A DNA stretch of 64,000 nt. Source: an uncultured Verrucomicrobiae bacterium. GTDB taxonomy: Bacteria; Verrucomicrobiota; Verrucomicrobiia; Chthoniobacterales; UBA10450. How positions within the stretch are numbered: the first letter of the stretch is position 1; every line of letters starts with the position of its first letter. Made by a program: the position numbers. Positions 42,001 through 45,000 of this stretch are shown here, one piece after another. Location: assembly GCA_963717545.1 (NCBI GenBank), contig OY970345.1, positions 1,922,001 through 1,986,000 on the forward strand, read 5' to 3'.

Positions 42001-45000
42001 GAAGGTAAACGTCCTATGGCAAAACCCAGATCAACCAAAACGGCTCCGCTGTCCTACAGTAAGTTGGTGAAAAAAATTATCGGCGATCCCGAGTTCGCCA
42101 AGTACGTGCACGACCTCGTCTGTGTCGCGCGGAGTGGGGATAAAGCGGCGGCGAATAAGCTTAACGCGCTCTATAAACTCACCGCTGCCGACCTGAAAAA
42201 ATGCTGCCTCCCGGCTGGCGTCGTTAAGTCGCTCAATTGTGGACGGGACAACTACTACGCCACGTTTGGGACTACCCCTACGACAGTAATGCTCCTGGAC
42301 TTTGCGGCGATGGTCTAGCCAGGAAGGGCAAGCTGTTACTCGTTCGCTCAAGTCCGAGCGAGATCGGCTCAGGAGAGACTGGCGCGTAATAGCCCGTAGT
42401 GTCCCTTTCCGCCACGGTCCCTGGCGTTATTCGCGAAGATTCCAGAATGACGATCCCGCCCAGGGTTGGAAGATTCATCTCTCTGCAACCTTGCGCTCGG
42501 CCACCGAAATCCTGGCGCGCGCCATGCCAATTCTGCACAAGTCCGGCGTTCTCTACAAGGTTCCGGCGCGGCTCGAATTCCTGGTGAGCCTGAACTCGGG
42601 TTTGGGCCAGTTCTCCCAAATCGGAAAATTCCTGACCGCTTACGCGCGTTCGAACGCAGAAGCTGTCGCCCTCGCTCGAGAATTACACAAGGCGACTCGA
42701 AAATTGGAAGGGCCCAAGGTCCCATTCGATGTGCCGTATCGAAAGCAGGGCATAGTGTCCTACCGCTACGGCGCCTTTCTTGGCGCAGGTAAAAATGGCG
42801 CGGCCGGGTCTATCGTTGATGCCGCCGGCCGCATCCGCCCCGATCTCCGGGATCGCGAGCATGCGGTTCCGAGCTGGCTTGAAAATCCATTTCAACCCCA
42901 TGCCCGGGCCGTCACGGCGCGCCTGCCGGACCCGTTCGGGATCGATTTGCTTCCCATCAAAGCCATAACGCAGCGCGGCAAAGGAAGCGTATATCAAGCG
43001 CTGGATCTCTCCGTTTTGCCTGCACGCGTCGTAATTGTTAAGGAAGGACTCCGCCACGGCGAAGCCAACTGGGTCGGGCTCGACGGATTTGTCCAAATTA
43101 AACGCGAAGGCACGATTCTTCGGCAACTCCAACGATCGGGCGTGGCCGTGCCAACGGTATTTCGGGAATTCACCAAGGGCAGGAACCGGTATCTGGTTTT
43201 GGAAATGATTCGCGGACGCCGCTTGCTTTCGCGCCGGCGCTCGCAACCCAAAAAGAAGTCCTGGAAGACCGCCCAGGGACTATTGAAGCGAATAGGTGCA
43301 GCGCTCGCTCAGGTTCACGAAGCGGGTTATGTCTGGCGTGATTGCAAACCAGAGCACATTTTTTTTCGAGGCAAGCAGATTCGGTTCGTTGATTTCGAAG
43401 GGGCTTGCCGGGTCGAGGAGGTAAACGCCTATCCCTGGGCCACGTCCTCTTATAGCCCGCCTCGTTGTCACCAAGAAATCGCGCGGCGGCCAGGGACCCT
43501 GGAGGATGATTACGCGCTTGGGGTGATTGCCTTCCAGTTTGGGGCCGGAAAATTCCCGCCAGCGTCAGCTCGTGCCCGGGCCGCTCTCTACCAACGCACA
43601 AAGTGCCCGAGCGCTTTGCGCGAAAACATCGAGCAGTTACTTACGGCGAAAATCCCCCGTCGCCTTGTAAAGTAGCCGGCCGTGGGAAACTGTCGCTGCC
43701 TTGGCCAATTCATTTCATAGCTCACGGCTTTACGGCTTTTTCTGCGAACTGCGCCGGCGCAAGGTATGGCGGGTGGCCGCCGGTTATGGCGTCGTCGGCT
43801 GGTTGATTATCCAATTCGCTACGACGGTTCTGCCGGCCTTGACCCTGCCGGCTTGGACCGCACGGTTGGTCATCGTCCTCGTGCTGGCCGGATTTCCCCT
43901 CGCGCTCATTCTGGCGTGGGCGTTCGACGTTGGATCGGACGGAATCGTGCGCACACCCGAAACGAAACCCGCCGAGCAATGTCCGCCTGCTTTGCCGGGC
44001 CGGCGCCGGAACATTTTAACGCTAGCCGTCATCGGCCTGTTGATTTCGGCCGTAATCGGCTACTTCGTTCTCCGGCATACTTCATCGCGGAAGATGGAGA
44101 AATCGATCGCCGTCCTGCCGTTCGCAAATTTCAGTGACGATCCCGCTAACGCCTATTTTGCCGATGGCATCCAGGACGATGTCCTCACGAACCTGGCCAA
44201 GATCAGCGCGCTGAAAGTAATCTCGCGGACCTCTGTCCTGCCCTATCGCGGCCAGACCCATAACATCCGCGAGATCGCAAAGGCGTTGAACGTCGCGACC
44301 GTTCTCGAAGGCAGCGTCCGCCGCGAGGGCAAACGCGTTCGGATCAACGTCCAGCTTATCGACGCCTCGAACGACCACCATCTCTGGGCCCAGGTCTACG
44401 ATCGCGAACTGACCGACATGTTCGCGGTCCAAAGTGAGCTCGCCCATGAAATCGCCGGCGCCTTGAAGGCCACGCTCGCCCCGGGCGAACACGAGAGGAT
44501 CGTGCGCAAGCCGACGGAAAACGGCGACGCCTACCTCCTTTACCAGGAGGCGCACGAAATCTTTAGCCGGCCGGACCGGCACCACGACGATCTGGGCCGA
44601 ATCGAAGACCTTTATGAGAGAGCGATCCAGCTCGATCCGAATTTCGCGCTCGCCCAGGCGCGGCTCTCGCATTTGGAAAGCTGGATGTTCTACGCCGTCG
44701 AGCCGTTGCCAGTTCGCGCCGAAAAGGCTCGCCGCGCGGCGGCGGAAGCGCTCCGCCTCGAGCCCGACCTGGCCGAGAGCCACCTCGCCATGGGCTACGT
44801 CCATTACTACGTTGACCACGACTACGAAGCGGCCCTAAAAGAACTGGCCATCGCGCGGGCCGGCTTGCCTAACGACCCGGGAGTTTTCCGCGCCATGGCC
44901 GCGATTCAACGGCGCCAGGGAAAATGGGAGGAATCCAACGCGAGCTATGCGAAAGCGGTCTCGCTCGACCCGAGAGATCCGATCCTGCTCGAAAATATGG

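Follow-up and report, generated by a model that had tools for sequence, protein, structure and literature searches.

A co-inherited unit of TolB-N/TPR membrane protein, small helical protein and cyclase-less LanL-type lyase-kinase in a Verrucomicrobiae bacterium: a possible receptor-ligand-modifier cassette

What might a lanthipeptide-type lyase-kinase do when it has no cyclase and is encoded directly after a small helical protein and a membrane protein carrying tetratricopeptide repeats? The question is raised by a locus in the genome of an uncultured Verrucomicrobiae bacterium, within a window of 64,000 nucleotides (the whole stretch of DNA analyzed, contig OY970345.1). An earlier note on this DNA reported a cyclase-less LanL-like lyase-kinase following a 100-aa peptide gene, and both open reading frames are confirmed in the window. 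The unit is larger than that note had it: TPR_A, a predicted receptor encoded upstream, is a third, co-inherited member besides the small protein and the enzyme (Table 1). The joint presence and absence of the three genes points to a likely role for the enzyme, that of converting the small protein into a signal for the receptor. GC content is 0.57-0.59 across the cassette and 0.52-0.63 around it, with no island signal found at the cassette, and a promoter and terminator scan there returned signal at or below chance.

Table 1. Features of the three-gene unit, in window coordinates.
Feature	Position	Strand	Remarks
TPR_A, membrane-anchored TolB-N/TPR protein, predicted receptor	40071..41954	+	Likely start GTG 40191; TPR, FlgO/TolB-N-like and TPR_END matches
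Small helical protein, 100 aa, predicted substrate and ligand	42016..42318	+	Same 15/40 genomes as the enzyme; dN/dS; AlphaFold helices
Cys36, co-varying with Cys64 (42205-42207)	42121..42123	+	Predicted disulfide or metal pair
Invariant Cys75, then Thr83/86/87/89/90, predicted modification site	42238..42285	+	Cys conservation 41/41
Cyclase-less LanL-type lyase-kinase, 457 aa from TTG	42302..43675	+	Overlaps the small gene by 17 nt
Lyase motif W56-K57-x-H59 (with K86, K109, D143, R155)	42467..42478	+	Invariant 30/30
Kinase catalytic loop D347-C-K-P-E-H352, His replacing the conserved Asn	43340..43357	+	

The unit is delimited by its distribution. Previously counted in 9 of 23 genomes of the genus, the module is found in 15 of 40. 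A small-protein profile built from those loci matches the same 15 genomes as the enzyme and none of the other 25, and a TPR_A orthologue (62-69% identity, 607-1032 bits) is likewise present in these 15; the best paralogue in the other 25, which include G008, an unpublished genome, reaches 344 bits, with at most 41 candidates scored per genome. Receptor and enzyme also occur together in the same 2 of 131 genomes of an order-wide sample (12-13 candidates scored each). In 35 of 38 Chthoniobacterales-type loci, many of which are the same sequences as the genus loci, TPR_A is the gene immediately upstream. The exceptions are L055, which is a truncated relic, L053, whose contig begins within the enzyme gene, and L031, which has the small gene and the enzyme with no TPR_A upstream. 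Both L045 and L051 carry the whole set of three in duplicate, and in L021, L025 and L033 the set remains together in altered surroundings. That the three genes are present, absent, duplicated and relocated jointly demonstrates the genetic unit itself. The neighboring TPR genes had been described as always the same, which is true of TPR_A upstream, linked to the module, and not of the downstream genes, whose position reflects mere synteny. Twenty empty loci from enzyme-less genomes consist of ArsR followed by other TPR genes, and the downstream types TPR_B and TPR_C are kept in 18 of them, which rules these two out as members of the cassette.

Sequence divergence within the unit is correlated as well. 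Across 16 loci the flanking ArsR averages 86% identity, TPR_A 62%, the enzyme 58% and the small protein 28%. Divergence of the small protein tracks that of TPR_A (partial r 0.58) and of the enzyme (0.66) after allowing for ArsR, with a permutation p of 0.0005 for loci that are kin and not independent; its rho with ArsR is 0.16. This 16-locus correlation leaves out L032 (mis-extracted), L050 (frameshifted) and the tandem loci L045 and L051. Transfer of the cassette as a block would produce the same sequence correlations as co-evolution. TPR_A is under purifying selection in three of three pairs (dN/dS 0.12-0.20), as is the small protein in six of seven close pairs (0.14-0.39), the remaining pair having a value of 2.5.

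The enzyme contains RamC_N (3e-35) and Pkinase domains. Its length had been given as 383 aa, from a call that starts at M75 (ATG 42524) and drops W56, K57 and H59; the reading frame extends upstream without a stop to TTG 42302, at or next to which five of the closest homologues begin (P0004, P0005, P0008 and P0009 among them; 70-75% identity). With the full frame the LanL model (NF038150) matches at 1.4e-75 over model positions 7-404 of 851, and LanKC matches at 2.9e-60. The match first reported (6e-61, positions 44-404) was right in identifying a LanL without its cyclase part, but too short in extent. The LanL score of 255 bits compares with a cut-off of 650, and the LanKC score is also far below its own cut-off. 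The best solved relative, by sequence as well as by fold, is the class IV enzyme CuvL (fold match 8cav, E 4.7e-21). Members of the family are about 420-500 aa long. The best 119 other homologues listed, in a search covering lengths up to 800 aa, span 388-500 aa, and when length is not limited the first protein longer than 800 aa appears at rank 108 of 150. Because close homologues share this length, the short, cyclase-less form is not a fragment. The nearest named relatives belong to the Chthoniobacterales and Verrucomicrobiota, followed by the Pyrinomonadaceae and Blastocatellia.

Both catalytic parts of the enzyme can be compared with characterized relatives. The seven lyase residues of Table 1 stand at a constant +6 offset to VenL W50, K51, H53, K80, K103, D137 and R149, a correspondence matched by spacing rather than by direct alignment with VenL; all seven VenL residues are required for the lyase according to the available part of PMC8341899. 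Judged by these residues, the lyase active site is intact. The kinase residues K247, E269, D347 and D364 (Lys, helix-C Glu, catalytic Asp and the Asp of DFE) are invariant as well. The Mg-binding Asn of the catalytic loop is His in 114 of 117 scorable close homologues and Asn in 41 of 41 acidobacterial-type relatives, and replacement of this Asn in the SgbL kinase loop abolished activity (PMC8341899, available part). Retention of His across the clade suggests selection at this position rather than decay. Variants of VenL and SgbL without their cyclase dehydrate precursors fully in vitro, as stated in the same available text (PMC8341899).

Whether a cyclase or other enzyme might act in trans can be addressed by distribution. 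A LanC-like domain (PF05147) was not found in this genome, which is 88% complete; the same search was positive in five congeners and in the genome carrying L085, a locus with a stand-alone LanC. Among the 40 genus genomes LanC-like domains occur in 5, of which just one is among the 15 cassette carriers, where the domain belongs to an unlinked kinase-LanC fusion. The term lanthipeptide-type, applied to the module in the earlier note, is thus apt for the LanL-type lyase-kinase and unsupported for a lanthipeptide product, since 14 of 15 carriers lack LanC. Haem peroxidases are present in 36 of 40 genus genomes, regardless of the cassette. These distributions (36/40 and 5/40) rule out both peroxidase and LanC as a co-inherited trans partner at the genus level. 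Elsewhere in the window, at positions 1236-2783, lies a haem peroxidase gene whose product is about 30% identical to one found upstream of acidobacterial-type loci. No recurring protease or transporter family was found among the clustered neighbors of the cassette loci, and no tailoring gene recurs in the Chthoniobacterales-type loci.

The small protein is the most variable member of the unit, and its one constant feature is a Cys residue (Cys75 here), present in all 41 sequences. The sequence R[KR]CT[DE]SG, proposed earlier as the core of the family, is just a subtype (7 of 19 genus peptides, 5 of 40 in the wider set). A Cys-Thr dipeptide is found in 18 of 19 genus peptides, and the residue after the invariant Cys is Thr or Ser in 38 of 40, a count made without the mis-extracted L038 and L056. 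The peptide of this genome had been described as divergent, and it does lack an adjacent Cys-Thr; its spaced C...TTPTT form, however, recurs in L036, L038 and L047. The residues equivalent to Cys36 and Cys64 are both present in 9 sequences and both absent in 32, never occurring singly, and their five changes on the tree are always joint. For a second Cys pair the corresponding numbers are 19 with both, 3 with one and 19 with neither. From such co-variation the paired residues seem to form disulfides or to bind metal within a folded helical body, with the invariant Cys left free. An AlphaFold model of the 100-aa protein (mean pLDDT 59) has helices at 14-62 and 89-98 and a low-confidence loop at 66-87. 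The description of these proteins as helical precursors with a core consequently stands in part: they are dedicated, co-inherited, helical Cys/Thr proteins, but in place of a leader and core they look folded, with paired Cys. As noted earlier, they match no leader family, none of 17 genus peptides hitting NHLP- or Nif11-type leader models at E up to 1, nor do the genus peptides match any Pfam or NCBIfam family. NF038399, of the NHLP clan, weakly matches (E 0.014) 3 of 27 proteins of the acidobacterial set, all LanC-linked precursors. An N-terminal signal sequence was found in 0 of 41 small proteins, and no cleavage site was identified in the small protein. A fold search with the model gave nothing usable (best Z 3.7), an ESM Atlas search with two small proteins gave no usable match, and a metagenome scan recovered seven ordinary members and no close relative of the allele in this genome. 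When TPR_A (456 aa) and the small protein, a partner of uncertain fold, were modeled as a complex, the score was 0.00 against a mark of 0.32, which speaks neither for nor against binding.

TPR_A resembles a receptor with exchangeable outputs. Its orthologues form a clade of their own (33 sequences, support 1.0), and among 32 of them the N-terminal part is cyclase-like in 8 (by motif only), a Ser/Thr kinase in 1, multi-TM in 21, as in this genome, and ambiguous in 2. The kinase part, in L021, is confirmed. The enzyme had been placed between TPR-bearing, adenylate-cyclase-like genes; the TPR neighbors are indeed present, whereas domain search finds no adenylate-cyclase domain in them in this genome. 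Wherever the N-terminus is readable, a TM segment precedes the TolB-N/TPR domain. The single TM segment that follows the kinase or cyclase part would place the TPR domain outside the inner membrane; the TPRs of the receptor kinase PknS are periplasmic (PMC13147305, available part). TolB-N/TPR membrane proteins are numerous, with 48 first-look candidates in this genome and 89-146 in five acidobacterial genomes.

Relatives of the unit in Acidobacteria have a comparable layout. Among 41 acidobacterial-type loci, the profile identifies a related small gene in 39; a convergent gene for an STK-TPR protein is present in 38, and an upstream gene for a haem peroxidase and a gene for an ECF sigma factor in 33 each. 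The one sigma factor inspected carries a QTTA motif, and QTTA-type ECF sigmas are a class activated by Thr phosphorylation (PMC13147305, available part). The acidobacterial STK-TPR receptors are not the closest paralogue of TPR_A and form their own clade, not sister to it in the tree, which rules them out as TPR_A orthologues. Because of this separate clade, the link to a receptor seems to have arisen twice. In two loci, L085 and L086, the same enzyme family occurs with a stand-alone LanC and with four Cys/poly-Thr precursors per locus, and there is no receptor; the receptor-bearing loci are without an adjacent cyclase. When 7,866 ORFs are ranked by the Chthoniobacterales small-protein profile, all eight L085/L086 precursors are among the first 10 (E 7.5e-5 to 0.07); searching in the opposite direction reaches only a weak E of 0.65, and hhalign gives E 2.4e-4 at a probability of 43%. 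By these matches, of weak homology, the small proteins probably descend from lanthipeptide-like precursors.

Several known systems resemble parts of the unit. Class IV LanL enzymes (VenL, SgbL, CuvL; NF038150; structures 8car and 8cav) share the lyase-kinase fold and domain order, the required lyase residues, the kinase Lys, Glu and both Asp, and an adjacent small gene bearing Cys and Thr. The cassette differs from them in lacking a cyclase in cis (and, in 14 of 15 carriers, in trans as well), in the His that replaces the kinase Asn, in a predicted substrate that is a helical protein of 90-135 aa with paired Cys, and in the receptor gene. The enzyme thus resembles the front of a LanL; with no cyclase and the Asn missing, it is nevertheless not, from its sequence, a class IV member. 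In class V lanthipeptide and AviCys systems the kinase and lyase are separate proteins and the precursor ends in Cys, whereas here lyase and kinase are fused and no small protein in the compared set ends in Cys. TIGR04510, the "putative peptide modification system cyclase", has an NHLP-related precursor and a SagB-like dehydrogenase as partners; no characterization of this system was found in the literature searched. As in the cassette, a cyclase/TPR membrane protein is encoded in a cluster with a single modifying enzyme and a precursor that is small and helical, but the modifier of the cassette is a lyase-kinase, its small proteins match no NCBIfam precursor model, and TPR_A scores 57 bits (two orthologues 38-40 bits) where the cut-off is 400. 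ComQXP of Bacillus and agrBDC of Staphylococcus place modifier, precursor and cognate membrane receptor side by side, are inherited as a block and are more variable than their flanks. The cassette likewise has a receptor gene inherited with modifier and precursor. It bears no sequence relation to these systems, however, has a Gram-negative host and a TolB-N/TPR sensor with swappable outputs in place of a histidine kinase, and includes no processing or export gene. The PknS/EcfK (ECF43) system matches the acidobacterial partner and L021 in architecture (kinase, TM segment and periplasmic TPR, next to an ECF sigma), but the available part of its description mentions no ligand, precursor or lyase-kinase (PMC13147305). 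Descriptions exist of NHLP precursors encoded next to LanM or to a large Ser/Thr kinase (PMC2887384, PMC7726476, available parts); the genus peptides, unlike these, match no NHLP model. Among the titles and abstracts searched, which cover few subscription journals, no description of a natural cyclase-less LanL with a receptor was found.

Taken together, these features fit a matched receptor-ligand-modifier signaling cassette, a reading given a probability of about 45%, in which dehydration, export and binding are predicted steps. By analogy with class IV enzymes, the lyase-kinase would phosphorylate a Thr or Ser beside the invariant Cys and then carry out beta-elimination to yield dehydrobutyrine, which may stay reactive or close onto the free Cys without an enzyme. 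The modified small protein would be the ligand sensed by TPR_A outside the inner membrane, and TPR_A, from its topology, would relay this signal, in this genome to a membrane hairpin and in some orthologues to a cyclase or Ser/Thr kinase. This reading is weakest in two respects, the absence of an export route and the His in the kinase loop. A further step, possible though doubtful, is cell-to-cell signaling of a new class, in which a lanthipeptide-derived dehydratase would put an electrophilic dehydroamino acid or an enzyme-free thioether into a disulfide-bonded small protein that serves as the allele-specific ligand of its own TolB-N/TPR receptor. In that case no earlier type of ligand would have been named for these receptors, a family that is strongly expanded in Verrucomicrobia and Acidobacteria of soil and that would have been recruited twice, and the His-substituted kinase would add another unusual trait.

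Other explanations account for part of the same evidence. The unit may be an ordinary RiPP locus, in which the core is dehydrated and host proteases remove the helical part to give a small molecule, antimicrobial or otherwise, with TPR_A as an accessory for immunity or for sensing the product. The LanC-linked loci L085 and L086, with their Cys/Thr-rich precursors, and the weak NHLP-clan matches of three such precursors are in keeping with this, and the lack of a dedicated protease is shared with many class III/IV clusters (PMC8341899, available part). It is an unlikely account all the same, given a short core with often a single Thr, a helical part with co-varying Cys pairs, the lack of a recurring transporter or tailoring gene in Chthoniobacterales-type loci, and the fusion of TPR_A to signaling output domains in 9 of 32 orthologues. 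Alternatively, the enzyme may serve as an intracellular switch, a phosphothreonine lyase/kinase acting on signaling proteins (the cytoplasmic part of the receptor or its targets) with the small protein as regulator or decoy. SpvC-type lyases do eliminate phosphate from proteins (PMC4159009, available part), and the intact lyase site next to a changed kinase Asn, the missing export signals and the acidobacterial partnership of a Ser/Thr kinase with a QTTA-type ECF sigma, of a class that Thr phosphorylation activates (PMC13147305, available part), all point this way. The conserved part of TPR_A, however, is its predicted extracytoplasmic TPR domain, while the cytoplasmic part, the would-be target, is freely swapped, and the small protein retains its Cys and Thr and resembles lanthipeptide-like precursors; this explanation, too, is considered improbable.

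A pathway split between loci, with a cyclase or haem peroxidase acting in trans, would fit the peroxidase upstream of most acidobacterial-type loci and the related one in this genome, but the lone, unlinked LanC-like domain among the carriers and the indifference of peroxidases to the cassette make it quite improbable. Least credible, indeed hardly so at all, is that TPR_A merely rides along with a mobile module of two genes that landed among arrayed TPR genes. TPR paralogues are abundant in this genome and L031 has the module without TPR_A; set against this, no TPR_A occurs without the enzyme in the 25 other genus genomes, duplication and relocation are joint, TPR_A is under purifying selection, and a second receptor clade is linked to the enzyme in Acidobacteria.

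Read as a receptor-ligand-modifier cassette, the unit bears on a large family of sensors. For TolB-N/TPR membrane proteins no ligand was found described in the literature, in a search that was a weak one, and the cassette supplies a candidate for the ligand together with the enzyme that would produce it. The three genes could be expressed in E. coli, with the natural cyclase-fused TPR_A orthologues as ready reporters, and the cassette would offer a test of kinase activity with His in place of the Mg-binding Asn. If the reading is true, a folded protein would be the target of a lanthipeptide dehydratase that works without ring closure.

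The two TolB-N/TPR paralogues downstream of the cassette, TPR_B and TPR_C, were ruled out as members of it, since both are retained in cassette-less loci. Elsewhere in the window, two neighbouring ORFs look, on sequence inspection only, like proteasome beta and alpha subunits.

Location of the genes and loci described
Feature	Location	Strand	Remarks
TPR_B, TolB-N/TPR paralogue	window 43701-45743	+	
TPR_C, TolB-N/TPR paralogue	window 45815-47806	+	
Proteasome beta- and alpha-like ORFs	window 5355-7060	+	
Haem peroxidase (PF03098), 515 aa	window 1236-2783	-	~30% identity to acidobacterial-cassette peroxidases
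Second haem peroxidase copy, same genome	C1 about 1487030-1488500		broken across two frames
DyP-type peroxidase	L094:3664-5511	-	upstream, opposite strand
Split class IV-like cluster	L085:6905-11614		lyase-kinase, four precursors, stand-alone LanC
Split class IV-like cluster	L086:5000-9453		lyase-kinase, four precursors, stand-alone LanC
Gene group adjoining peroxidase-type cassette	L079:1071-5555	-	
Kinase-LanC fusion, 823 aa	L154:106-2577 (genome G006)		adjoins ABC permease
Enzyme-TPR read-through	L032 about 7950-11000		~1,010 aa
Kinase half and cyclase fragment	L055:7634-8627		directly abutting

Precursors of the two split class IV-like clusters have a helical leader and carry CC-x-poly-Thr at the C-terminal end. 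The gene group at L079 encodes a Cys/Thr/Gly repeat protein of 328 aa and a 774-aa protein whose C-terminal domain is LanC-like, and it also includes a kinase-like gene. The kinase-LanC fusion has no obvious lyase domain and its location is unlinked to the cassette.

The haem peroxidase family, present in 36 of the 40 genus genomes, is distributed independently of the cassette. At the acidobacterial locus L094, a DyP-type enzyme occupies the spot held in other acidobacterial loci by an animal-type haem peroxidase.

Two cassette loci are irregular. In one (L032), the enzyme frame continues into a TPR gene, representing either a fusion or an assembly error; the other (L055) looks like the outcome of a joint deletion of the lyase, the small gene and the body of the receptor.

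In two pairs of loci, synonymous divergence of the small gene, which encodes the predicted substrate or ligand, greatly exceeds that of the adjacent receptor gene TPR_A (0.67 against 0.13 for L041/L042; 0.53 against 0.17 for L045/L051), and in the pair L021/L052 the small gene has a dN/dS of 2.5. Either allele exchange or diversifying selection could account for these values.
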